A stretch of 61,593 nt of DNA from a virus (IMGVR_UViG_3300032288_002010:1-61593); one strand, 5' to 3'. Positions 24,755-51,854 are shown, counted from the stretch's first letter. Notes: generated by a model not told the origin, from the sequence alone. Program-made: numbers and translations.

Positions 24755-27700
24755 TTAGATATTGAAACTTGCACCAGTTGGTAGAATGTTGAAGTCAAGG
24801 ATAATGAATTCAGCGGTTCTAGTTGGTTGGATGAAGATTTGACCATATAGAATATTTCTATCAATTAGGTCAGGAGTATTGTTTTGTTCATCCATCTTAA
24901 CTTGGTAAGCATAGATACCATTACGTTGTTGTACAGATTCCAAGTAAGGATTTACGATACTCAAGAATCTATTACGTGTAGCAGCTACGTTTTGTTCGAA
25001 TACCAAGTAGTTGCTTGAACTTGCGACGAACTTCTTCAAGTTGATCAACAAGCGACGAACATTGATACGATCCAAGGCACTTGGAGCAATTTGTAGAGTC
25101 TTTTGACCCCATACACAAATACCTTGGCCAGGGAATGCTGCGATTGGATTTACACGACCTTCATACAAGGTGTCACGTTCGTTATGAGTCAAACGATCAA
25201 GTACTTGTACTGCGGTTGGAATACCACCACGATTTAGACCGGCTGGTGCGTACCATTCGGCAGCAGCGTTGTCGTTAGCAGCGTAAACTGCTGGCAATAC
25301 TACTGAAGGTGGAACGCTAATAACCTTGTTGGTATTAGTATCTAGGATCTTAACCCAAGGATAATAAGTACATACATAGTTACTATCAATTGTTGCTACG
25401 CTGTTGATAGCTGCATCAATTAATCCAACGGTTTGGTTACTTGCTGGGAACACGATGTTATCCATGATGTAGAAACAATCGCCACGAGCTTCGCACATAT
25501 CGATAGTAATCTCGGTTACGTAGCTGTGTTGTTCACGGAAGATACCAGGCAACACAATCAAGTTGATATCAAATTCATCAGCGTTACCTAAAGCAGCAAT
25601 AGCTTGTTTATAAGCAATGCTACCTGGGCTGTTGATATTTGTACAATCTAGACCTTGTGTATTACCGGCGGTAATATCACTACCGATGTTGATTGGAATT
25701 GCTGGCCATTGACCATCAAATCCACCTTGGAAACCTACCAAGAACTTACGCAACTTGACGTAGGTTGATTCATTTACTGGATCATAGTTACTTGGAATAC
25801 TACCACTTAGGGTTGGTGACAATAGTGATCCTGTTCCATTTGCATAGAACTTAGCACTATCGGTACCCCATGTCTTGTCTTCCAAGTCGAAGTCAATATT
25901 TACACCATTTACACTACTTGGTAGTGGTTTGAAGTATTGATATGTATCATTATATACACCCACGTTAGCAGATGATGTAGGATACAATGAGGTCAATTCA
26001 TCATCAGCTTGTGGTACTGCGTTAAACACTGTACCAGAAGCATATTTACCAGGAGCCAATGACCAGATACTTGCTTTGCTGTATCTTACTGGAGGAATAA
26101 TATCAGCCAAGGTACCAGCAACTGGAGTTGAATATGATTCAAATCCATATGGAACAGATACTTCTGGATATAAACCATCAGCCATTTCAATTCTGATAAA
26201 TTGACTCAAGTTTGCGTATGTACCAAACTCAATAATTTTACCAGCAAATGTAATGTAAGCATATCTATCACCAATTCTACGAGCAATGAAGTTAGCAGAT
26301 GCAGGATCTAGATTCAAGTTTTGATAAATTTCCAAATATTTTGGACGCTTATCAGTATCACTATAAGCACGTACTGCCAATGTGAAACTACCCCAATCAC
26401 TACCTGGGACTGTACCAGACAACTTAACGTTGCTGATTTCAATCTTATACTTCTTATTACTCAAAGTACCATCGCTCAATGTGTGTACTTTAAACAATTG
26501 GAATTTGGTTGGAGTGGAAGCACCAGATGCACTACCTTTGAATGGAGCAATCTTTTGAGAATAGATCCATGGAGTATAAGCATTTGTGATACTGAATTGG
26601 CTATCACCAGCATTCAAGTTTGTGCTGTATTGATCGACGAACTTTAGAGGTTCACCAACTGCAAATCCTGTTTCAGGAGCAGTCTTAGCAGACAATCTCC
26701 AACCGCCGCCTTCTGCACTTGGACGAGTCTTTTCTGCTACGAATCTTTGAATACTATCATTGAACAACAAGTAGTTGTAGGCAGCTTCTACTTTTTGTCC
26801 AGCAACTTGTTTAGCAGGATTACCAGCGGTAGGATCCATACCAAATACGTTTGCAATATAATTATTATCACTTTCATTTAGGGTGAAGTCATAGTAACCA
26901 TATGTTCCCGAACTTGTGCTACCATCATTATTTGCGAAGTTATACTTCAAAATTAGTTGATAAGCATTTTCGTTTGGATTGATTAATCCCTTATATGGGA
27001 ATACTGAACTTGTCAATTGACTCAAGGTTGATGTGTCAAATCCAAATACTTCATAGCTACTATTGAATTGGGTTGAACCATTTTGAGTATTATTCAAAAC
27101 AGCCAATACCATCTTGGTTCTAGCAGATGTGTTTGGATTACATGGATCTCCACCTGAATTATCTTGACTTGTGAATGTACCATTGAAATCACCATAAGCA
27201 CCACCAATTAGACCCAAGAATTGTAGTGAAGAACCACAACTGGTTGAACTTCTAATAGATTTTACACTTGCGCTATATACTGATAAGATACCATTTACAT
27301 CAAATGTAGTTGTATCGTAATCCAAGGAAATCTTGGCACTTGAAGTCATTGATGCTGAGAAGTAAGCAACCGTTTCAGAACTTTCATTGAAAGCTGTAGA
27401 AACCTTAACTTCTGGACTTACGTTTTGAGATTGTACACTGGAACTTAGATAGTAATAACCAGCAAATAATCCAGATGTTGGAGTTACTCCTGTGATCTTT
27501 CTATACAAATATGTGTTAGCACCAGAACTATTTGTTGTGCTTACTGTTCCAATATTTACTTGTTTTCCAGCATACAATACTGAACCACTTAGTGATCCGC
27601 CTGTACCATTGTACCCAGATGGATAGTTACTTGTAGCGGCCTTTGGAGCAAACTTACCGTTAACTGTACCATTTAGTCTCAAACGAGATGTATCATATCT

Positions 27701-28696
27701 ATAAACAAATGCTGCAGTTGATTTTGAACTGCTTATACTTGCATTACTAAAATCAAGAGTATTGTTTGAGGCATATTTACCCAATACCAAACCATAAGTT
27801 ACATCATTACCACTTAGAGTATAAGATGCGGTCAAATAGTTATAATATGGTAGTGAACTTGCCAAATATGATGATGAATAAGTAACTGAATATCTTGTTG
27901 ATCCGATAGAAGCGGAAACTACACCCGCGATTAAAGATCTATCATAATCAAAATTTGCCAACGTATAATCACTAGAACCACCTGGTGGTTGAACCTTGCT
28001 GCCTTGTTGTACTACAGATGCACTAAAGATGTAACTATTTCTAGTGGTTGCGATCTTAAACAACTTACCTTTACTACCAGAAGCAGCTAGTGATGCGGAT
28101 AGTGTAGTACTATTTGTTGCGGTAGGCCATCCAATAGATACTAGGAATTGTGCAATTTCTGTATTTGTAGCTTTGGTGACGTTTACAGATGAAGAAATTG
28201 TTCCAGTAGTACCTGCTATACCACGAATTCCCGTCACGCTCGATGCGATTGTTGAAGAACTATATTCAAGAATGATGTTTGATGTATAGGAATCACTATC
28301 CAAATACATGAATGATGCAGTGGTCAAAGCACCCAAGTCGCTATTTCTGTTCCAGTAACCTGGTTCAGCGTATACAACTAATGGATTCTTTTGCCAGTAT
28401 CCGGTTAGACCGCCGATACGAACGACGGTTACTACACCTTGTTGAATTAAATATTCTTTGGCAGTGTATGGACCATAATATACCCCGTCAGCTACGCCGA
28501 AACGTTGTTCGAGCATTGCTACTTCGGTCATTCTTGCTGGGAAGAATGCTGGTCCATCTGAAAATGGTGCTACGATGGCACCTCCGATATTGGCTACGCC
28601 TTGGGCTAGCCCTGACAAGTCATTTTCTCTGGTAAATACACCAGGACTTACTATATTTTGTGTTGGTGAAAATCTTCCACCTTCTTGTATTGGCAT
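24755..28696 (-). CDS. Contractile tail sheath protein (gp18-like) with large Ser/Thr-rich insertions
   Basis: VSPGVFTRE start; WYAPAGLNRG, VNPI, WGQKTL, DRINVRRL, PTRTAEFI. SD GAAAGGA; TATTTATA at 28728-28735. Confidence 0.93.
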   Translation of the reverse strand: MPIQEGGRFSPTQNIVSPGVFTRENDLSGLAQGVANIGGAIVAPFSDGPAFFPARMTEVAMLEQRFGVADGVYYGPYTAKEYLIQQGVVTVVRIGGLTGYWQKNPLVVYAEPGYWNRNSDLGALTTASFMYLDSDSYTSNIILEYSSSTIASSVTGIRGIAGTTGTISSSVNVTKATNTEIAQFLVSIGWPTATNSTTLSASLAASGSKGKLFKIATTRNSYIFSASVVQQGSKVQPPGGSSDYTLANFDYDRSLIAGVVSASIGSTRYSVTYSSSYLASSLPYYNYLTASYTLSGNDVTYGLVLGKYASNNTLDFSNASISSSKSTAAFVYRYDTSRLRLNGTVNGKFAPKAATSNYPSGYNGTGGSLSGSVLYAGKQVNIGTVSTTNSSGANTYLYRKITGVTPTSGLFAGYYYLSSSVQSQNVSPEVKVSTAFNESSETVAYFSASMTSSAKISLDYDTTTFDVNGILSVYSASVKSIRSSTSCGSSLQFLGLIGGAYGDFNGTFTSQDNSGGDPCNPNTSARTKMVLAVLNNTQNGSTQFNSSYEVFGFDTSTLSQLTSSVFPYKGLINPNENAYQLILKYNFANNDGSTSSGTYGYYDFTLNESDNNYIANVFGMDPTAGNPAKQVAGQKVEAAYNYLLFNDSIQRFVAEKTRPSAEGGGWRLSAKTAPETGFAVGEPLKFVDQYSTNLNAGDSQFSITNAYTPWIYSQKIAPFKGSASGASTPTKFQLFKVHTLSDGTLSNKKYKIEISNVKLSGTVPGSDWGSFTLAVRAYSDTDKRPKYLEIYQNLNLDPASANFIARRIGDRYAYITFAGKIIEFGTYANLSQFIRIEMADGLYPEVSVPYGFESYSTPVAGTLADIIPPVRYSKASIWSLAPGKYASGTVFNAVPQADDELTSLYPTSSANVGVYNDTYQYFKPLPSSVNGVNIDFDLEDKTWGTDSAKFYANGTGSLLSPTLSGSIPSNYDPVNESTYVKLRKFLVGFQGGFDGQWPAIPINIGSDITAGNTQGLDCTNINSPGSIAYKQAIAALGNADEFDINLIVLPGIFREQHSYVTEITIDMCEARGDCFYIMDNIVFPASNQTVGLIDAAINSVATIDSNYVCTYYPWVKILDTNTNKVISVPPSVVLPAVYAANDNAAAEWYAPAGLNRGGIPTAVQVLDRLTHNERDTLYEGRVNPIAAFPGQGICVWGQKTLQIAPSALDRINVRRLLINLKKFVASSSNYLVFEQNVAATRNRFLSIVNPYLESVQQRNGIYAYQVKMDEQNNTPDLIDRNILYGQIFIQPTRTAEFIILDFNILPTGASFNI

Positions 28697-28783: not shown

Positions 28784-29311
28784 TTATAATGTGCCTATAA
28801 ATTTTTTAATAATTTCTATAGAATCAACTCTGTTTAAATCAAATGACTCTAAGTTATATATGATATTATACTTTTCTCTGGAAATTTCAAAATTATCAAA
28901 CTCATCATTAAATTCTGTCATATTTATCTGATATTTGAAATTAGTACCCCGAGTTTGATTATATAAATCTATATAAGATCCCCAAATTCTAGAATCTTCT
29001 AAACTAGAAGTTTTTAAATTAAACATGAAGTTATAATCTTTTATATTAAATTCATATTCATCTATTAAACTCACACCATTTTCCAAACTGAACGCGTAGA
29101 GTTTAATATAATCAAATTGTAAGGATTTAATATTTGTTCGTAAATACCAATGTCCTATCTCAGGAGTTTCTGTTGAATAAAACTCATGTTCTTTGCTAGA
29201 AATTACATAATGTAGAGTATGATTAAAATATCTGTCTGGTATGTTAGCAAATGTCAATTTAATAAACGACTCCGTATATTTTACATTAAAAAAATTATTT
29301 TTTGATCTCAT
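28784..29311 (-). CDS. Hypothetical protein, last gene of the glycosylation cluster
   Basis: 175-aa ORF with a 4-nt overlap with the carbamoyltransferase gene. Confidence 0.55.
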   Translation of the reverse strand: MRSKNNFFNVKYTESFIKLTFANIPDRYFNHTLHYVISSKEHEFYSTETPEIGHWYLRTNIKSLQFDYIKLYAFSLENGVSLIDEYEFNIKDYNFMFNLKTSSLEDSRIWGSYIDLYNQTRGTNFKYQINMTEFNDEFDNFEISREKYNIIYNLESFDLNRVDSIEIIKKFIGTL

Positions 29312-30951
29312 TGTAATTTATAAATTTTGTTGTTTATGATTAATAAATCAATAGTACCCTCAGATAGATGTGATAACGCATCATTTGGAGAATTAATTAT
29401 TGGTTCACCATGACCATTGAAACTAGTGTTCATTAACACAGGTATATTTGTTTTTTCATTAAATTTACTTAATATCTTATGAAACAAAGAGTGTCGATCC
29501 TTATTAACAACTTGTGGACGGGCTGTATTATCATGAAAGTTTATAACCGCAGGTATCTTTTTAGCCCATTCTTCACGAACTGTATAACACAACGTCATAA
29601 ATTCAGCGGCATTTTTAGATTTATAAACATGACATATATTTTCGATATGTTCTTCCATAATAATAGGAGCAAAAGGCATTATTTCATCTCTCTTTAATCT
29701 TTTATTTATGTAAGCATGTGTTTCTAATCTAGTTGGTTCAACGACTATAGATCTAGATCCTAAAGCTCTAGGCCCATACTCAGTAGCTCCTTCAAAAATA
29801 CCAATAACTTTTCCATCAACAAGATAGTTTGCAACATTATCAAAGTTTAATTCTTCTTCTATAATGTTTTTTCTAAAATTTGTAGAAAAATTATCTAAGT
29901 CGTTCTGTATATCTACAGAAGAATGTTTTTTTCCAAAGAAAACATCTTTTATACGACGATTTGTAAACTCTCCCAGTTCAACTCCATATGCAATCGCAGA
30001 TCCTAATGATAATCCTTCATCACCCATCGCTGGATAAATCCATATATTTTTAAATGGAAGGTATTCATTAATTTTTTGATTTAACTTTACATTTGCAAAC
30101 ACTCCTCCAGCTAAACAAATGTTATCAAATGGACCATACTGATCATATAATGATTTAATATGAGTCAACAGAGTGTTTTCTGTTAAGTATTGTAGATTAT
30201 ATGCTAAATTTCTTTTTAAATTAATAGCTTCTTCTGGATTTAAATTCTGCAAAAGATTTTTAAATTTATTTTCAATTGTACATGAAGCTTTTATCATGTC
30301 ATTCTTTACAAAGAAATTTAATATATCATAAATTTTATGATCGAACTCTCCTTGTGCAGCAAGACCCATTATTTTACCCTCATCTTTTAAAGGAGTAAGA
30401 CCAAATATATAACACATCAAATACCACATGTTTGCGATACTTCCATGTTTTACTCGTTCACCTATTTCAACCAATTTACCATTTTTAACTATATATGATG
30501 CCGATTGATTATCATTGAGATTATTAAACCAGTTGTATCTTTGATAATTGGAAATATTTAATTCTGTCCAATTATCATCTCCTATGTCACCACCATCATA
30601 GGAGATGACCAACGTATTATCATTAAATCCGGATGTATAATAAGCACCACATGCGTGTGCGTAATGATGACCTATTAGTCTTATACTTTTATTTTTTAAT
30701 ATATTTACGATATCATCGTGTCTGTGGTGAATGGCAGGTTTTGCAATTGCAAATTTTACACTCGGATCTTTTATGTCAAAATCAAAATCTTTTTGAATTG
30801 CTGAAAAACTATGTGATGGAAACAAACCGCCAGCGTATGCTGATTTCACTCGCGAGAATCTCTCCTCTGTATAACAAGCTAATATTTGATTATTTTCAAT
30901 CAAAGAAAAACCTACATCATGTGCGCCGATATAACTTCCTACAATTTTCAT
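29308..30951 (-). CDS. O-carbamoyltransferase (NodU/CmcH/TobZ family)
   Basis: HD...EERFSRVK, HHYAHA, DGGD, EGKIMGLAA, LAGGVFANV, EYGPRALGSRS, PFAP, NTSFN.HGEPI. Confidence 0.92.
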   Translation of the reverse strand: MKIVGSYIGAHDVGFSLIENNQILACYTEERFSRVKSAYAGGLFPSHSFSAIQKDFDFDIKDPSVKFAIAKPAIHHRHDDIVNILKNKSIRLIGHHYAHACGAYYTSGFNDNTLVISYDGGDIGDDNWTELNISNYQRYNWFNNLNDNQSASYIVKNGKLVEIGERVKHGSIANMWYLMCYIFGLTPLKDEGKIMGLAAQGEFDHKIYDILNFFVKNDMIKASCTIENKFKNLLQNLNPEEAINLKRNLAYNLQYLTENTLLTHIKSLYDQYGPFDNICLAGGVFANVKLNQKINEYLPFKNIWIYPAMGDEGLSLGSAIAYGVELGEFTNRRIKDVFFGKKHSSVDIQNDLDNFSTNFRKNIIEEELNFDNVANYLVDGKVIGIFEGATEYGPRALGSRSIVVEPTRLETHAYINKRLKRDEIMPFAPIIMEEHIENICHVYKSKNAAEFMTLCYTVREEWAKKIPAVINFHDNTARPQVVNKDRHSLFHKILSKFNEKTNIPVLMNTSFNGHGEPIINSPNDALSHLSEGTIDLLIINNKIYKLQ

Positions 30952-33089
30952 AAATTATGATCTTTTATCAGACTATCAATTTTTTCTATAACCATTTGCG
31001 GAGTAATTGATTTTGTACACTCAAACATTTCCTTTTTATCGGGTTTTGGGCACCACATCCAATTACCTCTGTCGAAATAATTATCATTCCAACATCCATT
31101 ACACACATTTTTATTTTGAACTCTATATGGAGTTTCAAATTCAGTATAGTCATGAGAAAATCCACTAATTAATGTTACTGGCTTTCCTATAGACCAAGCC
31201 AACCAAGATAATCCGGATGGAAGTCCTATAAAAAATGAACTATGATAGATTTGATTAATACGATCTTCTAATGAATAATTTCCGGTTAAATCTAACGCAT
31301 TAGAAGGGATTATATTCATATTATTATTATTTCCAAAAGAACTATTTTTATCTATACAAACTACATCGAATCCTTTTGATTTTAAATAATCAACTATAAT
31401 ATTCCAACCACCTTTGTAATTCCAATATTTTGCTTGTGCAGTACTTTGCGTTGCAATAGTAACATATGGCTTTGTGAATTTAGATGGTGATAATCTATAA
31501 TCTAAAGATGGCCTTTCAGGAACATAATTTAAACCCAAATAATCACTCGCTACTTTTTGCAATGGTTGTTTTCTAATATCATTCTTACATCGCATCGCAT
31601 TAATAGAACTATTATCTACATACCATCCAGGCTTATATGTTGCAAATAAATCGGGGACAGATTCATCAAAATTTATAAATTTAATATCCTTATATTTATT
31701 TTGAAACAATTCACGAAGTCTTATTTTTAAGAATAAATTACATTTGTGTTTTTTTCTAAATTGTTCTGCTATTGGCATCCAACATAACTGATCACCCAAC
31801 GCATTAGTTTCATATTCTATTAGTACATTCTTATCTTGCAAGTCCAAGTCATAATTTAACACGATTTCATTTGTTAAATTACTTTTAACTATTAAATTGT
31901 ATGGTATAAAATACGTATAATCACATCTACCCCACCAACCATCTTGCAGATTGGTATCATACAAAACTTCATCCGTTAAGGAGTTTTTAAATTTTACGTT
32001 AAACGTTTCATCTTTATTAGTACACTTTGTAATTTGTACAAATGCATTATCATTAAATGAATATTCAACATGTACTTTATTGTTAACTTTATTTGTATTT
32101 TTATTTAAGTTTGAATAAATATCTATAAATTTTTTCGCAAACAATTCATTTGTATACTCGTTATATAACTCAATCAGTTGATCAACTCTATTGGTATACG
32201 AATTATTATTTGCAGCTTTTAATGATTCGGTATGATAATATTCATAGTTTGAAATAACTTTATTGATTGCATCTTTTATTTGTTTTGTATCTCTATCAAC
32301 GACGATCATTCCATCATAACGTTTATTTTCAAACGTTCCTACAACTGGTAGTCCACAAGCCATAGCTTCCAGTAATGTTAAATTAGGATGACCTGCTTCT
32401 AACTCAGATGCGTGAATGAATATGTCATGGTTGTTGTATAACTCTATTAAACCATTTTCATCAAGATCAAATATCTTAGTTAGATGTTCATAATTGTTCA
32501 ATGATGGATCTAAAGTTTCAAAAAACTTTTTATTGTTACTTGGTCCAGCAATTGTAATAGGTAGATTCAACTCTTTAGCAGCTTGTATTGCATACGTGAA
32601 TCCCTTTCTATCATAAGATTGATTGTTTGCATAACCATTATTGGCAACACATAGTAATTTATATCCTTCTCTATTATAATTTTTATACTTAAATACATCG
32701 GTATTTACAGCATGTGAAAAATAACGTAACTTTTTACTAGCAAAATAATCAACCAAATATTTTGCTGGACATGTTGATATTATACTATTTTCTATAGCCT
32801 TTAGATTTTCTTTAAAAACATCTGAATTTTTTCCATATAGGAATGCGTGATGATCGTGTAATGTAAAAATATATGGTATACCACGTTCATAACATTCATT
32901 GGCTAAGTTTGCAACGTGAACATGTACGATTGTATTGTCATTATATTTAATATCATTTAAATATTTAATCTCACATTGTAATCCCTTAGAATTTAATTGT
33001 TGATGATAATCCCAAATAATTTTTTCAATAGCCCCCCAACCATTTGGTGGAATTGGAAGCAAACCTAAATGTACTTGTACTACTTTCAT
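30948..33089 (-). CDS. Fusion of GT4 glycosyltransferase and Aah/TibC-type protein O-heptosyltransferase
   Basis: N-half PPNGWGAIE...E.GHPNLTLLEAMACG; C-half ALGDQLCW, IATQSTAQAKYWN, FIGLPSGLSWLAW, LISGFS, CNGCW...WCP...FEC iron-finger cysteines. Confidence 0.85.
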   Translation of the reverse strand: MKVVQVHLGLLPIPPNGWGAIEKIIWDYHQQLNSKGLQCEIKYLNDIKYNDNTIVHVHVANLANECYERGIPYIFTLHDHHAFLYGKNSDVFKENLKAIENSIISTCPAKYLVDYFASKKLRYFSHAVNTDVFKYKNYNREGYKLLCVANNGYANNQSYDRKGFTYAIQAAKELNLPITIAGPSNNKKFFETLDPSLNNYEHLTKIFDLDENGLIELYNNHDIFIHASELEAGHPNLTLLEAMACGLPVVGTFENKRYDGMIVVDRDTKQIKDAINKVISNYEYYHTESLKAANNNSYTNRVDQLIELYNEYTNELFAKKFIDIYSNLNKNTNKVNNKVHVEYSFNDNAFVQITKCTNKDETFNVKFKNSLTDEVLYDTNLQDGWWGRCDYTYFIPYNLIVKSNLTNEIVLNYDLDLQDKNVLIEYETNALGDQLCWMPIAEQFRKKHKCNLFLKIRLRELFQNKYKDIKFINFDESVPDLFATYKPGWYVDNSSINAMRCKNDIRKQPLQKVASDYLGLNYVPERPSLDYRLSPSKFTKPYVTIATQSTAQAKYWNYKGGWNIIVDYLKSKGFDVVCIDKNSSFGNNNNMNIIPSNALDLTGNYSLEDRINQIYHSSFFIGLPSGLSWLAWSIGKPVTLISGFSHDYTEFETPYRVQNKNVCNGCWNDNYFDRGNWMWCPKPDKKEMFECTKSITPQMVIEKIDSLIKDHNL

Positions 33090-33091
33090 AA

Positions 33092-35083
33092 TTATTTAGC
33101 TATAAAATGTCCGTTGTTTTTTAATTCTTCGATTGACGAAAATTCAGTTAAAACTTCTTTTATGATACGAGCTTTGTCTTTGTCAAAAATGGTGTTTAAT
33201 ACTTTATACTTGTTATTTTCACGAAAATCAACCTCTATGTGCCACCAACCACCATTTATTATTTGTTTAATTTCTTTCTTAATCAAAATGTCATTTTCAT
33301 AAACACATATTTCATTTAGTTTATTGTCAATTTTATTATTAAAATTGCTCAAACATACAAATTTGTTTTGATTTGGAATAGGTAGAACAGTTAAATATTC
33401 ACACATAGAAAACATGTTAATTTCACTATTATTGAAAAAACTTTCTTCATTGTTTTTATAGTCAATGTATATATCTTTCTTTTTATGTATCAGTTTATTA
33501 TAATAAAATTGTTCAAGTCCATTTGATATGCCTGTTTCTTTTACAAATCTCTCATATGTGGTTGGAGTAAAGTACTCAAATAGTTCAAGATAGAAGTCTG
33601 TATTAATTGCATGAAATACCGTCTTTATAGTATCTCCCTCTAACGCTTTATCATAGAAGAAAAATCCTTTTTTTGTTTGCATGATATTTTTTATCATGTT
33701 TAATTGATTAAAATCTTTCTCAGATATAACAACGTCGTAATTAAACGCAAATACGTTTTTGTAACCAATCTTATTAGCAAAACCAATTCCATTATAATAA
33801 TTTAAAGCAACTCCTAATCCATGATATTTATCAGATCCACATGATGGTAGATAAACTTTTATATCATGATGTTGATTTACATATGTCCAATTTTTATAAA
33901 AATTATGAATCAATAATGGATTGTTTTTGTCGTAAACATAATAATCGGCTGCAGATTGTAATCTAGTACTAACTGGATAATGTGAGGATAAAATGACTTT
34001 ACATCCAAATTTTTTAATTTGTTCTATGGATTTTAAAGTTGTTTCTTCTATAATATCGTAATTTGGATGTGTGGAGATTACTGCTACAAACTCTTTTTCA
34101 TCAAAACGATCTATAGATTTATTTCCATACACAACATTACGAATTAAATTTACATTATTCTCGAAATTTGTTTCATTTAAATATGATACATTATCATAGC
34201 AGTTGTATCTATCTAGATATACAGGAAGATTATAAAATAGACTTGGTATATTATAAGCTATAGCTTCTTTGATAACGATAGGTGCTGTTTCTTTATCGTT
34301 AGCATGTCCACGACTGGTAAACAAAAATAAGTCCATACAACTATAAAAATTATGTACGTCTTTTCTCTCACCCCAGATTTTAACATTTTTTGGCAAATCT
34401 ATCAATAATGGTTCCCAATAGAATTTGAAATTATCTGCCATATTACCAACGCAATGAAATTGAATATTTTCACACTCCATCGATTTAGCATATTCAATGA
34501 ATTCTTTTTGATTTTTTCTTGGAGTAAATAATCCGACATGTAATACGTGTTTTTTCTTAGGATCAAGACCTAATTTTTTTAATCCATCTTCTCTTTTTTG
34601 ACGAGTTCTTACTTCAATTGGATACTCAATGACTTTTGATTTAACAGGAATAGATTTTACATTATTTTCTTGAAATTTGCTCACAAATGTAAAATGGTCT
34701 GGATACACCATCTTGGTAGATGGATTAAAACTACTATCATGTGATGTTTCAACTATAAAATATGATCTAGACACATCATATATTTTTGAAGAAATAGAAA
34801 AATCCATGAAATATTCCGGCATCTCTTCTAATGCAACTATATCCGGTTTTACTTTTTTAATTATAGTAATTAATTCTGATTTATCATTGCCTAAAACATA
34901 AAATCTATTCTTACATAGATTTTGAATCTGTTCTCTTTGTACTATCAACACACCACCTGTGTGATCATTATATTCTACACAATGTATTTCGTAATAATTA
35001 TTTAATGCTTGGATTTTTTTTAACAAAAATTGAGGCAAACCTCCTGTTGATAAGTGTGGAGATACAAATAACAATTTTTTCAT
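33092..35083 (-). CDS. GT4-like glycosyltransferase fused to an uncharacterised C-terminal domain
   Basis: PHLSTGGLPQ, VGLFTPRKNQ, FLFTS..ETAPIVIKEA; C-terminal VILSSHYPV..DYYVYDKNN domain. Confidence 0.75.
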   Translation of the reverse strand: MKKLLFVSPHLSTGGLPQFLLKKIQALNNYYEIHCVEYNDHTGGVLIVQREQIQNLCKNRFYVLGNDKSELITIIKKVKPDIVALEEMPEYFMDFSISSKIYDVSRSYFIVETSHDSSFNPSTKMVYPDHFTFVSKFQENNVKSIPVKSKVIEYPIEVRTRQKREDGLKKLGLDPKKKHVLHVGLFTPRKNQKEFIEYAKSMECENIQFHCVGNMADNFKFYWEPLLIDLPKNVKIWGERKDVHNFYSCMDLFLFTSRGHANDKETAPIVIKEAIAYNIPSLFYNLPVYLDRYNCYDNVSYLNETNFENNVNLIRNVVYGNKSIDRFDEKEFVAVISTHPNYDIIEETTLKSIEQIKKFGCKVILSSHYPVSTRLQSAADYYVYDKNNPLLIHNFYKNWTYVNQHHDIKVYLPSCGSDKYHGLGVALNYYNGIGFANKIGYKNVFAFNYDVVISEKDFNQLNMIKNIMQTKKGFFFYDKALEGDTIKTVFHAINTDFYLELFEYFTPTTYERFVKETGISNGLEQFYYNKLIHKKKDIYIDYKNNEESFFNNSEINMFSMCEYLTVLPIPNQNKFVCLSNFNNKIDNKLNEICVYENDILIKKEIKQIINGGWWHIEVDFRENNKYKVLNTIFDKDKARIIKEVLTEFSSIEELKNNGHFIAK

Positions 35084-43253: not shown

Positions 43254-44348
43254 TTAAAAGTCAATTCTAACTTTAATCAACAATTCATTATCAAATGATT
43301 TTTGAGTAGGACGACTTAACTTACCAATTGCTAGCAATTCATTGTTGTCATCATACAAACCAACCGAAGTGATATAAGTACGTGGATTGTTTATCAAGTC
43401 TTGATAAATAATTGTACCTTTTGTTTGACCATCCGTACCATCTGATACAAATGTTGGATTGTTGCTATAATTAAACTCTCTATTCTTAACACGAACGAAG
43501 TAATTTGTAGATGGTACAAACTCACTCTTTCGTACAGCCATCAATTTGGTTGTTCCCTTTAATGCTTTGAAAAAGTCTCTGATCCAAACTCTCCAGTGAC
43601 CATCAACATTTGTAGATGTTGAGTTTGGAAAACCGGCTCTGTTTGCGATTTGAGAATTAATTCCAACACGCTTTTGTAAATTTAAGGCATTTAATACAAC
43701 AATACCATTTGTTGGATAAGACAATCCGATACCTTCATATTGAACAGTATTATTCTTCAGATATGGTGTTGGTATACCATTGATAATAGAACCTGAAATG
43801 ATATTATATACACCTAGAGACTTATTAACAATCTGTGAGTCATCAATAAATGAATAAATTCCATTTGCACCACTCAAATTTAGTTGGATTTGACCTGGAT
43901 CAATTTGATCTTTAAACTTATCGGCTGAAAAATTAACAGCAAAAATTGCTTCACTATCAACTGGGTTATCTACACTGCCAGAAGCAAAGCTGAATAGTGT
44001 ATCGCCTGGTTGTAGTAATGTATTCTTGTATTGTGTGTAAATAACTTTAGTTTCATTAGTTAATACAGGTACAGAATAACTTGGATTATCATATTGAGAA
44101 CTACCTGTGTTTGCATAGTCTCCATATGCAACTGCAAAATATTGTTCACTACTATAATAAATGTCTAAGTAGTATTGACCATTCTTAACATCATATGGTG
44201 ATGAACCGGTCAATTGACGACCCTGTGTAGATGATGTGGTGAATAAAGATTGGCTGACTTGCAAGTCTCCAGATCCAAATAATCCAGATGAAACTTGGTT
44301 AATTCTACCAGCTACGATGTCATCTTTTGTAAATTGACTAAATATCAT
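43254..44348 (-). CDS. Putative baseplate structural protein
   Basis: C-terminus YITSVGLYDDNNELLAIGKLSRP, paralogous to 40093..42546. Confidence 0.65.
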   Translation of the reverse strand: MIFSQFTKDDIVAGRINQVSSGLFGSGDLQVSQSLFTTSSTQGRQLTGSSPYDVKNGQYYLDIYYSSEQYFAVAYGDYANTGSSQYDNPSYSVPVLTNETKVIYTQYKNTLLQPGDTLFSFASGSVDNPVDSEAIFAVNFSADKFKDQIDPGQIQLNLSGANGIYSFIDDSQIVNKSLGVYNIISGSIINGIPTPYLKNNTVQYEGIGLSYPTNGIVVLNALNLQKRVGINSQIANRAGFPNSTSTNVDGHWRVWIRDFFKALKGTTKLMAVRKSEFVPSTNYFVRVKNREFNYSNNPTFVSDGTDGQTKGTIIYQDLINNPRTYITSVGLYDDNNELLAIGKLSRPTQKSFDNELLIKVRIDF

Positions 44349-45039: not shown

Positions 45040-48000
45040 TTATAAATTCATTATGTACATATCCAAACTTGCACTCGTATATATGGATGCGGTTATTGGT
45101 AATTGTACAAATATTGATTTAGGTTTACCAACGGATCCAGTTAATGTACCATATTTAGGGAATGTACTACTCGTAACTTCCATAGATAAGAATCCAGGAA
45201 TAGAAATTACTGGTAATGATCCATTTGGTAATCCGTTTCTATTAACGGTTCTAGTATAATCATTCTTACCCTTTGTGAATGGATAATATGTTAAAGAACC
45301 CATACTTTTATCTAACTTCACACCATTTGTAATTCTGGTTACAGAACCACTTACAGCACGATATCTGTTTCTTGAACCAGCAAATACAAACTTACTCAGA
45401 TGTCTCTTAGAATAACCTGAATTTAAATCACCCTTGTATAAATCTCTATAAACTGTACTACCAGTTACAGATCCAGATCCAACAATTTGAACTTCAAAAT
45501 AACTGGATGTAAATCCAACTACGCTTGGAAGTTTGTTATTGGTCATCAAGTAGTAACTACTTTGACCTACCTTAGATAAATCTCTAATATAAGGTCCGTT
45601 TTTATCCACACCCACATCCTTGCCATACTTGCTGTATACGAAATCTCTCACATCATATGATGGCTTGATTTCAAACATCGAATAATTATACTGATCTTTA
45701 TCTGTATCTATATCAGTTGTTTCAAACATTGTTACAATGCCACAGCTAGATGTGTCACTAGTATTAATTAAACTTGATGTAAAAGTAGCATAATTATTAA
45801 ATGTTATTAGACTAGATGATGAAGCGAGTGGATTATCAGGATCCAAAGCTGTTACACCCACATTTTTATAGTTGAATTTTTTACGTTCAAAAATAGAAGG
45901 TTCTAGTAGTATACCACGTTTTAATGTAGCTCTTTGTGGAGTAAGTTTCTTGATAAAATCAAATATAGAAAAATCAATATAAAACTTATAGGTGCTTAAA
46001 AATTCTTGTGGATATATGTATTTTTCATTTAACTTGGCAAAGTCTCTTTGTAGAACCTTTAGTTCTGGATAACTTTGACTAGTTAAATATGCTGGATTTC
46101 CTATGACATCTGTAATACCTTCTTTACCCAAAAAGTCTTCAATCTTTGAATTCAAATATTGGTATGGAGATATGTAGTATCCAACAAGATTTGAATCAGC
46201 ACCGATAACATCTTCCGTATAGGCTGATTGTTCAGATGGTACCAAATTTGTATTAAGTAACATGTCAATCTTATTTATCTTACTATTATTTCTATAATTT
46301 GGTCCAAATTTATTTGAGTTAATTGCTTGTTTTATAGATAATTTCTCAAATTGATAAGGAAACTTAGTTACTTCAGATGGTTTACAAATAGGATAAGGTA
46401 GTGTTTCTATTTGAGCCGGGAAATTAACAGCTTGGAAATTGTCTTTGTAATATAAGTTTTGATTTGGTATCAACTTGGTTGAAGTCGATGAGTATAAACT
46501 AACCGGAGTGTCAAAACTCCAAACATATCTTGCATTCTTATATTCTCGTTCCTTATCATCTATTGCAAACGAGTTAATATTGTATGAGTGTTCGTCAAAA
46601 TTCTCAGAAGATACAGGATCTAAATAAACTTTAACTTTATCGATATTACCAAAAAATTTTACAGATGATGAAAAGTTACCAATATGATAACTACCACTTG
46701 AAAAATATTGATTGTGATCATATAGAATTGTAGAATTCTTTTTAGCACTAAAATTCAATTGACTTCCATAATATTGATTGATAGCTAATGTATAAACATA
46801 AGGTGCAAATTTATTTGCAGCAGATGATGTTATAGATTGTGTAAGTGGATAGTGGTTGATGTTTGTAGTTGGAGTATCAAATACACCAGGAGCAACATTT
46901 CTAGTCAATAGAATTGTATAAATATCCCCATTTAATAATGGAAGTTCTTGAAGTACAATAGAATTTGAATCAGTTCCTTGAGGTTGAAAATTAAATATTA
47001 ACTGGCCACTTACCTGTTGTATGGATTTCTTAATATAAATTTCCCAATCAACTTGGTTGTTTCTGTATTTTTTAATTAATGGAATTCTATCCAAATAATC
47101 ATAGTTATTTTTATTGAATCTAAAAGAACACTCCAACGCTGATAATCCTGTAAACACTTCACGATATGATTGTGTAATACCAGTACCAGGCGTTGCACTT
47201 TGAGAATATGGTAAACCACTGGATTGTAATATAAATTCACTTCCTGTATAATTGAATTTTATATACTCGTTGTTTGTGAACTTAGACATATACACTATGT
47301 CATCGAAATCATAAAATACCTGTCTGTTTACCAAAACATCACTGCTTCCATATTCAACTGGTTGAATTAGATCGGCAGATACACCAAAAATACTTCTTAC
47401 CAATTCATACGAAGTAGTAGTGCCTTTAGTCTTATATACACCGCTCATATTATTTGCAAATCTATTGAGTATAGATTTAGCATAATCAAAGTATGATGAC
47501 GATAAAGATCCAGTCTGTTCTGATGCATTAAATAACAATTGACTTATATCACTCTTTTCAAATTTTATATTATCAATATTCCAGTTGAAAGAGTTTAACA
47601 ACTCTTCTATGTAATTTTTTGGATAATCATTGTTATCGTTATAGTTAATTGGATATGCTCTTGGAAACTTTTTGATATAAACCAATATATTATCAAAGAA
47701 ATGACCAACCATTGATGTAAACTTTATATAATCCTCCGATTGCGGATCATTCTTCAAATATTCAGGCAATTGATTCAACAAACTATCGTAATTGTCTCTA
47801 TCGTAAGAAACACCATCTTGTATTTTGTCATCTATACTAGACGTATTAAAGAACAAATATGATTCATATTCATCAAACGTATTTAACAAATTGATTTGAG
47901 TTTGTGTAATTGAATCATACTTTTCAGATAAAGAAGATGATATAGCTATGTTAGCAGTATCGGCTTGTTTGCTTATTTGTATTTTTGATACATCATAACT

Positions 48001-49485
48001 ACTATATTGATTAATCTTATTCTTAGCTATCTTAGATCTAAGTTCCGCAGAAGAATAATTTATGAAATTATCAAAGTTATCGTAATTGATTAATAAATCA
48101 TTAACTTTTTCTTTTAACTTTGATTTTGCATAAAACAAAGTGTTTCTGTCCAAGTCTGAAAATTTATCATTTGTAGGACTTATGGTTGGTACTTGTACTG
48201 AAAAATTAACACCATTTAAGTACACCTTTCTGGATACACTATCGGCATATATATTAACTTTAAAATATAATGGAGCTATTGAAATGTTTGATATCCAACA
48301 AGTTGATTTAACGTTGTATTCTGTTGGAAGAGGAGAATCTAATTTTACCTGTACGTTATTGACTCCATCGATTGTATTATAATAACTGGTGTGACTTAAA
48401 ATCTTAATAAGATTTCCGTTATCAAAATTCAAAGCATTCTTATATAAACCAAAAAATCTGTCAGAATAATTTGATAGAAGTAAATTGGTCTGAGGTTGTA
48501 GCCAATCAGTATACAATATTTGTACAAATAAATTAACTGCGTCTTGTAAATCAATAGCATTTAAAGATGTTTTTTGTACAATTCTATCTTGAGAGACTTT
48601 AGTTACTATTGTTTTAAAAGCAAGTTGTATTTCTTCCCCAGAAAATTCTACGTCGTTATATTGATAAATAAAATTCTTTAATTGTTGTGCTATACCTGTG
48701 AACTTGACCGATTGATAAGACAGCACATCGGAATTTTCAGTTCTATTTAAAACTAAAACTCTATCAAATCCAACATATGAATCAATTATAAATTGTGTTA
48801 AATCGGCTTCATTTTTGAAACCTAAATTTTGACAAATTTTTATTAAATTTGCGTTTTGTCGTTCTATAGAAAAATTCTGAGAGATAGGATTATTGTCAAT
48901 TATCTTGATCAAATTATCCTCTAATTGCAAGAACAAATATTTTTTATCAGCGAATGCTGTAGTCTTAATCGCAGATAGTCTGTTAGAAGTACTTGCGTCT
49001 TTATTAAAAGCAAAGGAAAGTTTTAGTTCAGTTCTACTCGGAGAAATTTCTTTTATTACCAATTTATTTGTAGAATTACCAGCTACATTTCTGGTTGGGT
49101 TATACAAAAGATAATACAACCCAGGACTTACTTGATTGAACTTTAAATCAAATTGTGGATGTAAAAGTATGTTATAATCGAATCTAGTTATATTAGTATT
49201 TGGATTTAATACTCTATAATTTTTTGGTTGACCATTTATATCCAAATAATCACCTTGGATTACACTATAAGTAATACTTGGAACTATTCTATTAAACGTC
49301 AATGGTTCTTGATTAGAATTATACAAACTGAACTCTATTAAATCATCATCTGAGTCTCCGAAAAATACTTCATTTGTACTATATTGTTGTTCATACAAAG
49401 ATTGCAATTCAACATCAAAATAAGAAGCACTTACCAAACCCGAATTTAGTCCACTTTCATTAATTGTTAGGTAATTATAAGGCAT
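45040..49485 (-). CDS. Large baseplate wedge-like protein (1481 aa)
   Basis: NQLPEYL, KTKGT and LTP.RA.L..GIL motifs of wedge-type proteins; beta-sandwich-like middle. Confidence 0.55.
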   Translation of the reverse strand: MPYNYLTINESGLNSGLVSASYFDVELQSLYEQQYSTNEVFFGDSDDDLIEFSLYNSNQEPLTFNRIVPSITYSVIQGDYLDINGQPKNYRVLNPNTNITRFDYNILLHPQFDLKFNQVSPGLYYLLYNPTRNVAGNSTNKLVIKEISPSRTELKLSFAFNKDASTSNRLSAIKTTAFADKKYLFLQLEDNLIKIIDNNPISQNFSIERQNANLIKICQNLGFKNEADLTQFIIDSYVGFDRVLVLNRTENSDVLSYQSVKFTGIAQQLKNFIYQYNDVEFSGEEIQLAFKTIVTKVSQDRIVQKTSLNAIDLQDAVNLFVQILYTDWLQPQTNLLLSNYSDRFFGLYKNALNFDNGNLIKILSHTSYYNTIDGVNNVQVKLDSPLPTEYNVKSTCWISNISIAPLYFKVNIYADSVSRKVYLNGVNFSVQVPTISPTNDKFSDLDRNTLFYAKSKLKEKVNDLLINYDNFDNFINYSSAELRSKIAKNKINQYSSYDVSKIQISKQADTANIAISSSLSEKYDSITQTQINLLNTFDEYESYLFFNTSSIDDKIQDGVSYDRDNYDSLLNQLPEYLKNDPQSEDYIKFTSMVGHFFDNILVYIKKFPRAYPINYNDNNDYPKNYIEELLNSFNWNIDNIKFEKSDISQLLFNASEQTGSLSSSYFDYAKSILNRFANNMSGVYKTKGTTTSYELVRSIFGVSADLIQPVEYGSSDVLVNRQVFYDFDDIVYMSKFTNNEYIKFNYTGSEFILQSSGLPYSQSATPGTGITQSYREVFTGLSALECSFRFNKNNYDYLDRIPLIKKYRNNQVDWEIYIKKSIQQVSGQLIFNFQPQGTDSNSIVLQELPLLNGDIYTILLTRNVAPGVFDTPTTNINHYPLTQSITSSAANKFAPYVYTLAINQYYGSQLNFSAKKNSTILYDHNQYFSSGSYHIGNFSSSVKFFGNIDKVKVYLDPVSSENFDEHSYNINSFAIDDKEREYKNARYVWSFDTPVSLYSSTSTKLIPNQNLYYKDNFQAVNFPAQIETLPYPICKPSEVTKFPYQFEKLSIKQAINSNKFGPNYRNNSKINKIDMLLNTNLVPSEQSAYTEDVIGADSNLVGYYISPYQYLNSKIEDFLGKEGITDVIGNPAYLTSQSYPELKVLQRDFAKLNEKYIYPQEFLSTYKFYIDFSIFDFIKKLTPQRATLKRGILLEPSIFERKKFNYKNVGVTALDPDNPLASSSSLITFNNYATFTSSLINTSDTSSCGIVTMFETTDIDTDKDQYNYSMFEIKPSYDVRDFVYSKYGKDVGVDKNGPYIRDLSKVGQSSYYLMTNNKLPSVVGFTSSYFEVQIVGSGSVTGSTVYRDLYKGDLNSGYSKRHLSKFVFAGSRNRYRAVSGSVTRITNGVKLDKSMGSLTYYPFTKGKNDYTRTVNRNGLPNGSLPVISIPGFLSMEVTSSTFPKYGTLTGSVGKPKSIFVQLPITASIYTSASLDMYIMNL

Positions 49486-49486: not shown

Positions 49487-49960
49487 TTAAATTATTGGTA
49501 AGAATGGATAGTCATCACTAAAATCAGATGGTACATTACCTTGTCCAAGTTCAATTCTAAGTTTGATAATTTCACTTTTCATAGAAGCAATGACTTGTTT
49601 ATCATCATTCACTTCGTATTTTTCAACCAACTGATTTATGGTCTCATTCAAAATACGATTCTCAGCGATTGCAACATTGTATTGTTCAAGAATTTGATCA
49701 ATGTTTCTATTGTCAACCGATTCTTCAGTTTGCATCTCAGTGAAATCAGTTGTATTGGTATCAACAATTTTAGATTCGTTGTATACAAATACTTTGAGTG
49801 GAACATTTACATAATTTAAACTACCACTTACAGATTGTGTGACTGAATAGACTTGTTTTAGATTTCCAAAATCATCAAAATTATTAGCGAATGTACCAAA
49901 GTCTCTGAACTTTTGAACATCAACCAAAGATACATTATAAACTAATGGTATATTTGCCAT
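49487..49960 (-). CDS. Hypothetical protein with coiled coil (baseplate operon)
   Basis: 157-aa ORF with 1-nt gaps to both neighbours. Confidence 0.6.
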   Translation of the reverse strand: MANIPLVYNVSLVDVQKFRDFGTFANNFDDFGNLKQVYSVTQSVSGSLNYVNVPLKVFVYNESKIVDTNTTDFTEMQTEESVDNRNIDQILEQYNVAIAENRILNETINQLVEKYEVNDDKQVIASMKSEIIKLRIELGQGNVPSDFSDDYPFLPII

Positions 49961-49961
49961 A

Positions 49962-51854
49962 TCATCTTACTATCTTGAATATTTTGCCAGTATCCGCAAT
50001 ATCAACGGTACCATCACTATATTCTACTTTAATAAGTATTTTGAAATATCTTTCTTGTGGTAGTCCTGTAGTATCTATTATAAAGTAATTTCCCTTTGAT
50101 GGATCACAACTTAATTTTGTATATCTGTCAAAATCTACTAATACCTCTTCTGATTCCGCATCTTTAATCATGTAATATGATGATTTTGGCAAATACTTAG
50201 GTGTTACCATTACTGGTTGTTGATAAGCCTTATTAAAAGTTTTTAATGGATATTTATCTCTTCCAAATACAAATACTTTAGGAATACTACCAGCTTTATA
50301 AGCCTCTTTTAGATATTGAAGATTTATTAAATTGTCTGTGGACCCACTAAGAGGAGCTAAACTACCAGTATTAAATATCACATCCTCCCAAGCCACATCC
50401 AAATATGGTGAATAAATTGTATTAGATTCTTTACTAAAGAATTGTAATAATCCATTGGTATATTCTAATGGAGGAGTACTCAATTCAAATGAAGTTATCA
50501 AAATTAACCCGTTATTTGGAACACATCCACACAACCAAGATCTCACCATCGTGGTTATATCCATGTTTATATCACTTTGCGATCCATATGAGAATGATTG
50601 ACTAGCAATCAAACTTGATCCTCTTAATCCAGGAAAAAATGATGAACTACAAATCCAATTACGCTTGTTGGTATATGTTGGTGGAACATTATAATACCAA
50701 GTTCCACCTTGGTTTTTAAAACTTCCGGTAGCATAAGATGATGTTAATAGATAATCAACTTGTTGATAACTACGAGTTTGTAAATTACGATACCACAATC
50801 CACTGCCTGAATAATTTCTATAATCCCAGCTGGCTCCTATTTCACTACCATCGTTTGCATATCTACCATTACCATTTTCCCAACTTGCACTCAATGGATA
50901 TGCATAGATCTTATAATCCAATGGAATATTTCTAGCACCAGCCGCTTTCAGATTTAAAGAAAACTTCATGTATGAACTTGAAATTTGTCGGCTTGCGATT
51001 GACTGACTTAATTCTGTTAAATCAAACTTAATTAATGTTCTTGAGAATTCTGGATACAATAAATAAGTTGCGGTTGATGGTCTTGTGAAATTGCCATTAT
51101 ATTGACCATCGAAGTATCCAATAAAATTAGTAACATCTGTTCTATATAAACGAGATGAAGTTACGGTTTGAATATATCCATTAAAATTGGATGAAGAAAA
51201 ACTTCCTGTAAATGATCCGCTTAAAAATGCTCGAACTGGTCTATAAAATCCTGTACAACAAGGAAGCCCTGTATTTGATCTACCATCGATGATACCTGTC
51301 AAATTCTTGAAGCTACCAGTACCAGTTACAGAAGCGGTAAGTGGAGACGTAAAATTTCTCGATCCAATTCTTAATTGGGTAAATGAAGATTTAGCTCGTA
51401 TAGATCCTGAAAAACTGCCTGTTGTCCAAGAACCGCTAGCATGAAAATTGTTATTAATAAAATTATAACTTCCGCTAAAAGATCCAGACGTAAATCCCGC
51501 AGATCCTGATACAAATAGTCTTTTTCTAGGAACGCTTATCACATTAGATAATCTTCCATTAAAATTAGCAATAAATGAAGTTCCAGCAATTGTATCTGAT
51601 GTCAAACTAAACTTTCTCCAAGTACTACCAGAATATATGAAAAGAGAGCTTGTATTATAAGCTAACCAACCTTCATTTCCATATGACGAAGTGGTCTGTG
51701 GAGGAGTCTGCCAATTTGGGGTCGTATATATTGTTTCTGACCCTTTGTTTGATGCATAGATTTCTAATATCTCATCAATACCAAAATTTTTATCTTCAAA
51801 TTTGGATGAGTTATTGATGTATGTATCTTTAGCTGGATATATAAATTTATGCAT
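49962..51854 (-). CDS. Baseplate-associated virion protein, very SGS/TGS-rich
   Basis: KDTYI...NFG.DEILEI, SRTLIKFDL, W.NG.G, FFSKE...P.L..W; GNEGWLAYN module. Confidence 0.6.
   Translation of the reverse strand: MHKFIYPAKDTYINNSSKFEDKNFGIDEILEIYASNKGSETIYTTPNWQTPPQTTSSYGNEGWLAYNTSSLFIYSGSTWRKFSLTSDTIAGTSFIANFNGRLSNVISVPRKRLFVSGSAGFTSGSFSGSYNFINNNFHASGSWTTGSFSGSIRAKSSFTQLRIGSRNFTSPLTASVTGTGSFKNLTGIIDGRSNTGLPCCTGFYRPVRAFLSGSFTGSFSSSNFNGYIQTVTSSRLYRTDVTNFIGYFDGQYNGNFTRPSTATYLLYPEFSRTLIKFDLTELSQSIASRQISSSYMKFSLNLKAAGARNIPLDYKIYAYPLSASWENGNGRYANDGSEIGASWDYRNYSGSGLWYRNLQTRSYQQVDYLLTSSYATGSFKNQGGTWYYNVPPTYTNKRNWICSSSFFPGLRGSSLIASQSFSYGSQSDINMDITTMVRSWLCGCVPNNGLILITSFELSTPPLEYTNGLLQFFSKESNTIYSPYLDVAWEDVIFNTGSLAPLSGSTDNLINLQYLKEAYKAGSIPKVFVFGRDKYPLKTFNKAYQQPVMVTPKYLPKSSYYMIKDAESEEVLVDFDRYTKLSCDPSKGNYFIIDTTGLPQERYFKILIKVEYSDGTVDIADTGKIFKIVR

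Follow-up and report, generated by a model that had tools for sequence, protein, structure and literature searches.

Why should unrelated proteins of one phage particle share a short, serine-ended tripeptide? The question arises from IMGVR_UViG_3300032288_002010:1-61593, a viral DNA of 61,593 nucleotides (hereafter, the window, meaning the whole stretch analysed), whose structural proteins a preliminary description had found to be dense in [S/T]-x-S, a possible glycosylation sequon. The 61.6-kb record is a fragment, with a CheckV completeness of 23%, of an uncultured contractile-tailed phage with relatives of ~290–305 kb. We confirm that six non-homologous virion proteins are enriched in [ST][GASQ]S, and that the enrichment has a direction and is specific to serine. 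That the motif is a glycosylation acceptor is plausible but unproven, with a probability of roughly 40% by our estimate; we infer both that motif serines are modified and which enzymes would do so. A purely structural role of the motif is nearly as likely.

We counted [ST][GASQ]S in 51 open reading frames (ORFs) and took the expectation for each protein from 500 whole-protein shuffles. The strongest signals come from a 630-residue peripheral baseplate protein encoded after a gp6-like wedge gene (positions 49962..51854, minus strand), with 26 sites where 5.5 are expected (z-score 8.9), and from a 1481-residue protein of the baseplate/fibre block (45040..49485, minus strand), with 25 sites against 6.6 (z 7.3), for which Pfam and PHROG scans gave no match. 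An 817-residue FG-GAP beta-propeller protein (40093..42546, minus strand; PF14312, E = 1e-21), probably a fibre or receptor-binding protein, and a 405-residue neck or head–tail adaptor-like protein (4015..5232, minus strand; phrog_211, E = 7e-10) follow with 19 versus 5.1 and 7 versus 0.9, both at z 6.1. The 1313-residue tail sheath (24755..28696, minus strand) holds 22 motifs versus 9.1 (z 4.6), and a 364-residue protein (43254..44348, minus strand), which matches five ORFs of Microcystis phage Mel-JY01, holds 6 versus 1.8 (z 3.1). Pooled, the six proteins contain 105 motifs where 29.0 are expected (z 14.6), and the largest count in 1,000 shuffles was 47. The strings quoted in the preliminary description are all present, FVSGSAGFTSGSFSGSY, ASGSWTTGSFSGSI and LSGSFTGSFSSS in the 630-residue protein and PGSGSAVTSGS and SASMSGS in the neck protein; the neck and capsid genes lie outside positions 24755–51854, to which it had assigned the pattern. 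The recurrence it had noted in the sheath, the 817-, 364- and 1481-residue proteins and the neck protein is above shuffle expectation in every case, more weakly so in the sheath. Motif density in the 630-residue protein peaks at residues 116–232, with SGSF-type repeats, and 17 of the 22 sheath sites fall in residues 100–700, within a large lineage-specific insertion, against a single one in the conserved core (residues 975–1312).

An artefact of Ser/Gly-rich composition, of low-complexity patches or of a DNA-level repeat is hardly credible as the source of these counts, even though the six proteins are serine-rich (8.6–13.7% Ser). When residues were shuffled within blocks of 40, 20 or 10, the signal of the 630-, 1481- and 817-residue proteins was hardly lowered, with z of 7.8, 6.5 and 6.2, respectively, for 10-residue blocks, and the neck and 364-residue proteins stood at 4.3 and 3.2. 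The sheath weakened to z 2.6, and related patterns are mildly raised in it. Direction is a second control: T-x-S occurs 43 times in the pooled proteins and its mirror S-x-T 9 times, where 11.2 are expected for each, and the respective counts are 10 and 0 in the 630-residue protein, 13 and 3 in the 1481-residue protein and 9 and 0 in the 817-residue protein, the mirror thus being at or below expectation. [ST]-bulky-S is depleted (5 versus 12.2; 8 versus 19.7). When all tripeptides in the six proteins are ranked by over-representation, TGS and SGS take the top two places and TSS the third, and the motif was therefore not cherry-picked. Codons at the motif are as mixed as elsewhere, which rules out a DNA-level repeat and places the signal at the protein level. 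A Ser/Thr/Gly-rich collagen-like fibre encoded at 2..1981 (minus strand) is not enriched (27 versus 32.3). Composition and low complexity are thus ruled out by the block shuffles, the mirror pattern and the tripeptide ranking; block shuffles and codon use refute the artefact for five of the six proteins, and it is partly possible for the sheath alone.

The signal is confined to part of the virion. That structural proteins are motif-dense holds for the six and fails for 17 other virion or morphogenesis proteins, which together have 19 motifs versus 18.5 expected. The gp6-like baseplate wedge (51856..53835, minus strand; phrog_219), an internal negative control, has 1 versus 1.9, the tape-measure-like protein 0 versus 3.5 and the portal 0 versus 1.5. 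The tripeptides had also been noted in the capsid insert, but the gp23-type major capsid protein (11211..12959, minus strand; PF07068, E = 7e-76) shows no significant enrichment, with 6 versus 2.7 (z 2.0) and, after local shuffling, 6 versus 4.0 (p = 0.22). In this protein T-[GASQ]-T, unlike [ST]-x-S, is raised (7 versus 1.6, z 4.5). The rarity that had been judged by eye in enzymes is borne out, with one motif in terminase, none in primase or Mom, and one and none in the glycosyltransferases. The composition-preserving comparison of structural with non-structural proteins that had been suggested accordingly gives enrichment beyond composition in the six, against 13 versus 10.7 for 21 pooled enzymes and other proteins.

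The same holds outside the window. Across the unrelated phages T4, T5, CBA120, SPO1 and phiKZ (537 ORFs of at least 150 residues; the first 200 kb for phiKZ), 421 motifs compare with 392 expected, T-x-S and S-x-T both number 190, and the three ORFs at z > 4 have at most five motifs each. A generic trait of tail fibres or spikes is ruled out by these five phages, which show nothing similar. The nearest cultured relatives of the window phage, Mel-JY01 and Flavobacterium phage immuto, are distant, with 32–36% identity across the C-terminal half of the 630-residue protein; the baseplate block is syntenic between the window and both. The bias is limited to 4 of 114 ORFs in immuto and 14 of 155 in Mel-JY01, mostly in the baseplate/fibre block, and the remaining proteome is neutral.

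Paralogy among the six motif proteins is ruled out by pairwise BLAST, which found no similarity save a 39-residue C-terminal stretch common to the 817- and 364-residue proteins (the final ~39 residues, E = 0.002). The C-terminal domain of the 364-residue protein is probably a shared baseplate-attachment module, because it recurs at the ends of five Mel-JY01 fibre proteins. The flanking residues extend the motif: the residue in front of it is L, V, Y, F or I in 65 of 105 cases, and a hydrophobic residue follows it in 68 of 105, against 35% in the background and 28% after other serines. The fuller motif is hydrophobic-[S/T]-[G/S/A/Q]-S-hydrophobic.

Conservation separates the third position of the motif from the other serines. 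Among 8,000 scored candidates, 400 proteins belong to the 630-residue family at E ≤ 1e-5, and all of the best 120 listed are enriched (z 6.0–10.5), with 1219 T-x-S and 106 S-x-T. In 110 homologues of less than 75% identity, the position-3 serine is kept at 89.6% of non-gap positions and swapped for Thr at 4%, compared with 65.7% and 12.6% for other serines; at position 1, Thr is swapped for Ser at 22%. The 817-residue family (39 homologues of less than 60% identity) gives 70.9% and 2.0% at position 3 against 39.0% and 9.2% elsewhere. These alignments indicate that the position-3 serine is under a serine-specific constraint, with Thr avoided. Homologues of the 817-residue protein hold ~19 motifs each (range 12–23), of which 11.4 align with sites of the query, and sheath homologues of other lineages are not enriched (1 versus 3.4 in contig G004 and 3 versus 3.8 in phage LR756501). 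The earlier argument that unrelated folds sharing one motif point to selection is thus upheld by the lack of BLAST homology beyond 39 residues and by the constraint on position 3. Many 630-residue homologues, among them P0068 and other 555-residue forms, are without ~75 residues of the SGSF-type repeat region (approximately residues 135–210), from which it appears that this block is gained or lost as a unit.

The motif sites had been expected at surface turns. The models place them at strand ends and tight turns, but also within strands, and not in free surface loops. The model of the 817-residue protein has a confident FG-GAP propeller at residues 10–445 with eight sites, seven of which are at strand ends, tight turns or loops: sites 145, 181, 235 and 400 combine a strand end with a tight turn, 226 and 321 lie directly before a strand, site 297 falls in a hairpin loop and site 57 within a strand. 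The AlphaFold model of the 630-residue protein has an overall predicted local distance difference test (pLDDT) score of 57, rising to 71–95 at residues 81–260, which are modelled as long beta strands. A Foldseek comparison of this model with the PDB gave no match at E ≤ 0.001, and the family profile gave none among PDB sequences.

We favour the reading in which the motif is an acceptor site kept by selection from a phage-encoded protein O-glycosylation system. A trans-acting agent is favoured because unrelated proteins converge on the motif, position 3 is constrained to serine, density is kept while sites turn over and the motif is restricted to the outer virion; O-glycosylation is the most likely such agent because every motif-bearing lineage has an exceptional glycosylation toolkit, being unusually rich in glycosyltransferase and sugar-pathway genes. 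At each motif a short polar segment, a turn or the end of a strand, would lie between two beta strands; the motifs are scattered over the peripheral baseplate protein, the fibre-like proteins, the sheath insertion and the neck. Glycosylation of these proteins would take place in the cytoplasm, ahead of assembly, so that tail and baseplate would acquire a coat of glycans. Candidate enzymes are encoded by a cassette on the contig; across genomes the motif instead appears to follow a gene-101-type GT2, which in the window's clade would end a rare-amino-sugar pathway. Rather doubtful is the fullest form of this proposal, in which the outer tail, baseplate and fibre proteins of this clade of abundant ~290-kb phages would bear dozens of O-glycans at hydrophobic-[S/T]-x-S-hydrophobic strand–turn–strand sites, added by phage-encoded enzymes from a phage-made rare sugar and/or heptose that is possibly carbamoylated.

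The cassette consists of three genes that abut or overlap one another, situated between the sheath gene and those for nuclease and primase. A 547-residue NodU/CmcH-type carbamoyltransferase (29308..30951, minus strand; PF16861, E = 3.8e-53; PF02543, E = 1.6e-32) overlaps by 4 nucleotides the gene of a 713-residue fusion (30948..33089, minus strand) between an N-terminal GT4 domain (PF00534, residues 160–286) and a C-terminal TibC/Aah-family serine O-heptosyltransferase (bacterial autotransporter heptosyltransferase, BAHT), which is followed by its conserved partner, a 663-residue GT4-type glycosyltransferase (33092..35083, minus strand; PF00534, E = 2.4e-12). Residues 340–705 of the fusion match TibC (4RAP) at E = 1.9e-70, and residues 338–706 score 329.3 bits with the TIGR04414 equivalog, over model positions 9–373 of 374, against a cut-off of 200 bits. 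The window enzyme keeps the TibC residues D110 (catalytic base), T226, K230, R286, W305 (sugar-binding) and P300 (donor selectivity), as well as all four iron-finger cysteines, C339, C342, C358 and C370. In an alignment of 33 homologues, the equivalents D433, T550, K554, R610 and W629 (of D110, T226, K230, R286 and W305) and C663, C666, C680 and C691 (of the iron finger) are invariant; the equivalent of Pro-300 is not among the invariant or near-invariant columns. The thumb tip F265/V266, which makes dodecamer contacts, is not conserved, and because it aligns to Asn-Asn in the phage enzyme, the phage BAHT may differ from TibC in oligomeric state. By these sequence criteria, the contig encodes a genuine TibC/Aah-family protein-serine glycosyltransferase whose known acceptor geometry resembles the motif, and its predicted activity, by family, is the transfer of heptose from ADP-heptose to protein serine.

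What makes the cassette a genuine candidate is that strand–loop–strand motifs are where TibC/Aah enzymes glycosylate serine. Parts of PMC4358343 describe TibC as adding heptose to Ser, not Thr, of the TibA beta-helix, with its gene usually beside that of the substrate; sections of PMC5000012 call BAHT enzymes rather promiscuous, and excerpts of PMC3835316 and PMC5000012 describe the acceptor as strand–loop–strand, not as a linear sequon. The family has been described as a virulence-associated modifier of Escherichia coli adhesins; among open-access papers we found none on a phage-encoded BAHT and none on Mel-JY01. In the window the BAHT does not stand alone: a GT4 domain precedes it in the fusion, whose gene belongs to a block of phage structural and replication genes, and there is no autotransporter nearby. 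This fusion is the common form, found in 80 of 80 fetched viral loci; in 73 of them the 663-residue partner is adjacent, and the neighbours further include terminase (58 loci), the sheath (41 loci, motif-rich in 36) and the carbamoyltransferase (7 loci). A homologue of the 663-residue protein also adjoins the fusion in LR756501. The carbamoyltransferase looks like a recent addition in the closest relatives of the window, because it is present in only those seven loci. The fusion is common in metagenomes, where searches confirmed it in 286 viral contigs and found 2,418 database proteins at E ≤ 1e-10; among 50,697 sequenced phage records BAHT homologues are rare, being present in 4.

The motif bias is present in four lineages: the clade of the window (the window, G001, G006 and G007), contig G005, Mel-JY01 and immuto. 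A 400-residue gene-101-type GT2 is found in all four, namely in immuto, in G006 (48.6% identity to immuto, E = 2e-135), in G005 (38%) and, as a partial match, in Mel-JY01 (24–29%), whereas it is absent from seven others (G004, LR756504 and the five control phages) and LR756501 has a weak match. This conserved GT2 gave no match in the PDB. In G006, a relative whose matched segments in the shared region have ~68% nucleotide identity to the window, the GT2 is the last in a row of genes that encode a PseB/PglF-type dehydratase, an epimerase, a DegT aminotransferase, a radical-SAM protein and enzymes of the WbqC-like and PIG-L types. The nine-gene unusual-amino-sugar cluster that ends in the GT2 (L347:297-8284 in G006, ~50 kb from the window-matching region) also includes Polysacc_synt_2.

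The immuto genome has an 11-kb sugar cluster with five glycosyltransferases, the fourth of which is the gene-101-type GT2. Three others (genes 89, 90 and 92) make up an operon that Mel-JY01 and G005 share in collinear order; the best solved relative of its first enzyme in all three is B736L (PDB 3OY2, E = 1e-8). The operon was not found in G004, LR756501, LR756504 or the five control phages, and it is ruled out as the common factor, being missing at the syntenic place in G006. That these glycosyltransferases are conserved in phages whose hosts are as different as Flavobacterium and Microcystis points to an acceptor intrinsic to the phages. A glycosyltransferase-free relative was sought as a control, and none was found. 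In immuto itself, the tail spike has 61 motifs versus 21 expected, with T-x-S at 29 and S-x-T at 4. Its N-terminal 600 residues consist of [ST]AS[YF] and SGSFSGSFxGDGSxLTGI repeats, and the C-terminal third of the same protein (L006:33270-36431), residues 804–1011, is similar to head repeats found in trimeric autotransporter adhesins (BpaC 7O23, E = 6e-10).

A number of findings weigh against an acceptor role. The complete immuto genome is motif-biased yet has no BAHT, GT9 or 663-residue homologue, and BAHT-encoding phages without a motif-rich protein (z > 4 and at least 8 motifs) are LR756501 (0 of 511 ORFs), LR756504 (0 of 395; the BAHT is a lone 296-residue ORF) and G004 (0 of 143; 65% complete). 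These four rule out a simple link between BAHT and motif. The BAHT fusion accompanies the motif in the window's clade and G005 and, as a variant fusion, in Mel-JY01; the five control phages have neither the motif nor a close homologue of the window's BAHT domain. From the proposal of a glycosylation sequon there stands the presence of a protein-glycosylating TibC/Aah equivalog, whereas the distribution of BAHT across genomes does not follow the motif. The association of the motif with the GT2 is confounded by shared ancestry, as all four lineages share baseplate genes, and this GT2 is seen in the relative G006, not in the window, itself 23% complete. No heptose-pathway gene (GmhA) was found in this clade, and nine related records are without it. 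[ST]-x-S-hydrophobic is not the pattern of the mapped TibA sites N-S-G-G and T-S-A-A, as given in part of PMC4358343. As would be expected of structural residues, many motif sites keep their position, three of them even at 32–36% identity. In the model of the 630-residue protein, 8 of the 12 confident sites are within strands and the other 4 are at their ends, and the hydrophobic flanks could mean that sites are partly buried.

Several of these findings fit an alternative that we consider nearly as likely, in which the motif is a preferred tight turn or strand end (a serine ladder) of the beta-rich accessory modules from which this phage lineage builds its outer tail, is inherited with them and is never modified, and the glycosyltransferases act elsewhere, most consistently on a collagen-like (Gly-Thr-Ser)n fibre. 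The bias follows the baseplate module shared by the window, G005, Mel-JY01 and immuto, not BAHT; sites lie in or at the ends of predicted strands between hydrophobic flanks; and the substitutions seen at conserved sites of the 630-residue family remain within the pattern (SAS/SQS, TGS/SAS, SGS/TGS). It is harder to reconcile with such a structural signature that Thr, the better strand former, is avoided at position 3 (2–4% swaps versus 9–13% at other serines), or that convergence on the motif is seen in six unrelated folds and not in the enzymes and inner virion proteins that the same genome encodes. Motif number is also kept while sites move, the sheath homologues of other lineages lack the motif, and the tail fibres and spikes of the five control phages have no counterpart.

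The collagen-like fibre is an alternative candidate substrate of the BAHT system. Its gene runs off the window, leaving at least 660 residues (PF01391, E = 3.5e-50; tail-fibre PHROGs), in which TSG occurs 61 times, GTS 55 and SGT 54. Runs of G[ST][ST] are present in five of six BAHT-encoding genomes or large contigs (the window, Mel-JY01, LR756501, G004 and G005, not LR756504) and in none of six without BAHT (immuto and the five control phages), so that in these comparisons BAHT is more consistently tied to the collagen-like fibre than to the motif. Serine in (GTS)n has the context T-S-G, which is similar to that in the TibA sites T-S-A-A and N-S-G-G reported in part of PMC4358343. In G004, 400 bp separate the collagen gene from the fusion, and in Mel-JY01 it is two genes distant; adjacency of the two genes as a general rule was rejected, being seen in 5 of 80 loci, all of one divergent group. 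Collagen-like proteins similar to that of the window, 3343–3487 residues long, co-occur with the BAHT fusion in G004, G005 and LR756501. The only heptose-pathway gene among the BAHT-encoding phages that we examined is a GmhA-type sedoheptulose-7-phosphate isomerase in LR756504 (636 kb), at 430122-430517, ~27 kb from its stand-alone BAHT-like ORF.

Some other trans-acting agent, such as phosphorylation, acylation or binding by serine-rich hairpins (for example, weak polysaccharide adhesion), would leave the same signs of selection on a linear motif, and no single glycosyltransferase is proven both necessary and sufficient. We regard such an agent as improbable, as the 51 window ORFs, most of which were scanned against Pfam, PHROGs or NCBIfam, yielded no kinase or acyltransferase, and the motif-bearing lineages are rich in glycosyltransferase and sugar-pathway genes.

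A near counterpart of the contig's BAHT is TibC/Aah acting on TibA and AIDA-I in E. coli. The C-terminal half of the 713-residue enzyme is an equivalog with the named catalytic, sugar-binding and iron-finger residues, and it would likewise act in the cytoplasm on serines of beta-rich, repetitive proteins. As opposed to the ~406-residue stand-alone enzyme of the bacterial systems, it is phage-encoded, fused to GT4 and paired with a second GT4 protein, with no autotransporter nearby, no conserved thumb tip and no heptose-pathway gene found in its clade, and its distribution follows collagen-like fibres. In mycobacteriophages, phage-encoded glycosyltransferases reportedly glycosylate the virions (Freeman and colleagues, in 2023), and PMC12582341 mentions that virion proteins are extensively glycosylated. 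There, as here, phage glycosyltransferase genes are interspersed with structural genes, and decoration of virion proteins by their products is proposed or shown. The present case differs in phage group, hosts and enzyme families, and its candidate targets are outer tail and baseplate proteins with a short internal motif, whereas the mycobacteriophage glycans sit on capsid and tail-tube subunits and are not known to have a defined internal sequon.

Serine-rich repeat adhesins undergo cytoplasmic O-glycosylation of S-x-S-x type repeats by the GT4-family enzymes GtfA/GtfB, which the proposed system would resemble in these respects. In contrast to a long disordered repeat, the present motif is spread over folded beta domains, and the GT4 parts match no GtfA-type NCBIfam model at E ≤ 0.001; such NCBIfam matches as they have fall far under the cut-offs (for example, 43 bits against 460 for IagA/BgsA). 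Chloroviruses also encode their own glycosyltransferases and a sugar pathway rather than relying on those of the host, and B736L, the best solved relative of the operon enzyme, comes from capsid glycosylation of that kind; these are eukaryotic algal viruses with glycans N-linked at atypical sites, and the similarity here is weak.

Known phage-encoded virion glycosylation belongs to a different phage group, and the open-access papers that we found define no acceptor motif. If the motif serines are glycosylated, glycan-coated phage tails would be predictable from sequence alone, with a bearing on host recognition, on resistance to proteases and defence systems and on the behaviour of phages in water and mucus. 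The fullest form of the proposal would give phage virion glycosylation its first acceptor motif defined by sequence, and would be the first case of a virus using an autotransporter-type heptosyltransferase. Independently of the motif, the contig shows that large environmental phages have acquired the TibC/Aah heptosyltransferase family, in the form of a GT4 fusion.

The remaining gene content of the window is that of a contractile-tailed phage, with nearly all genes on the minus strand and four on the plus strand in the working gene set. The head genes identified comprise the gp23-type capsid, a T4-type portal, terminase and a prohead protease, and the tail genes comprise the sheath, a gp15-like protein, the neck adaptor, gp25-like and gp6-like wedge proteins and the tape-measure-like protein, alongside Mom, a nuclease–ATPase fusion, primase and the collagen-like fibre. 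The Mom-family protein (10376-11149, plus strand; PF25680, E = 2.9e-42) suggests adenine modification of the phage DNA. A single ORF (35085-38273, minus strand) encodes a 1062-residue, SbcD–SbcC-like fusion of a calcineurin-like phosphoesterase with an SMC/Rad50-type ATPase, which is 38–46% identical to its counterparts in Mel-JY01 and G005.

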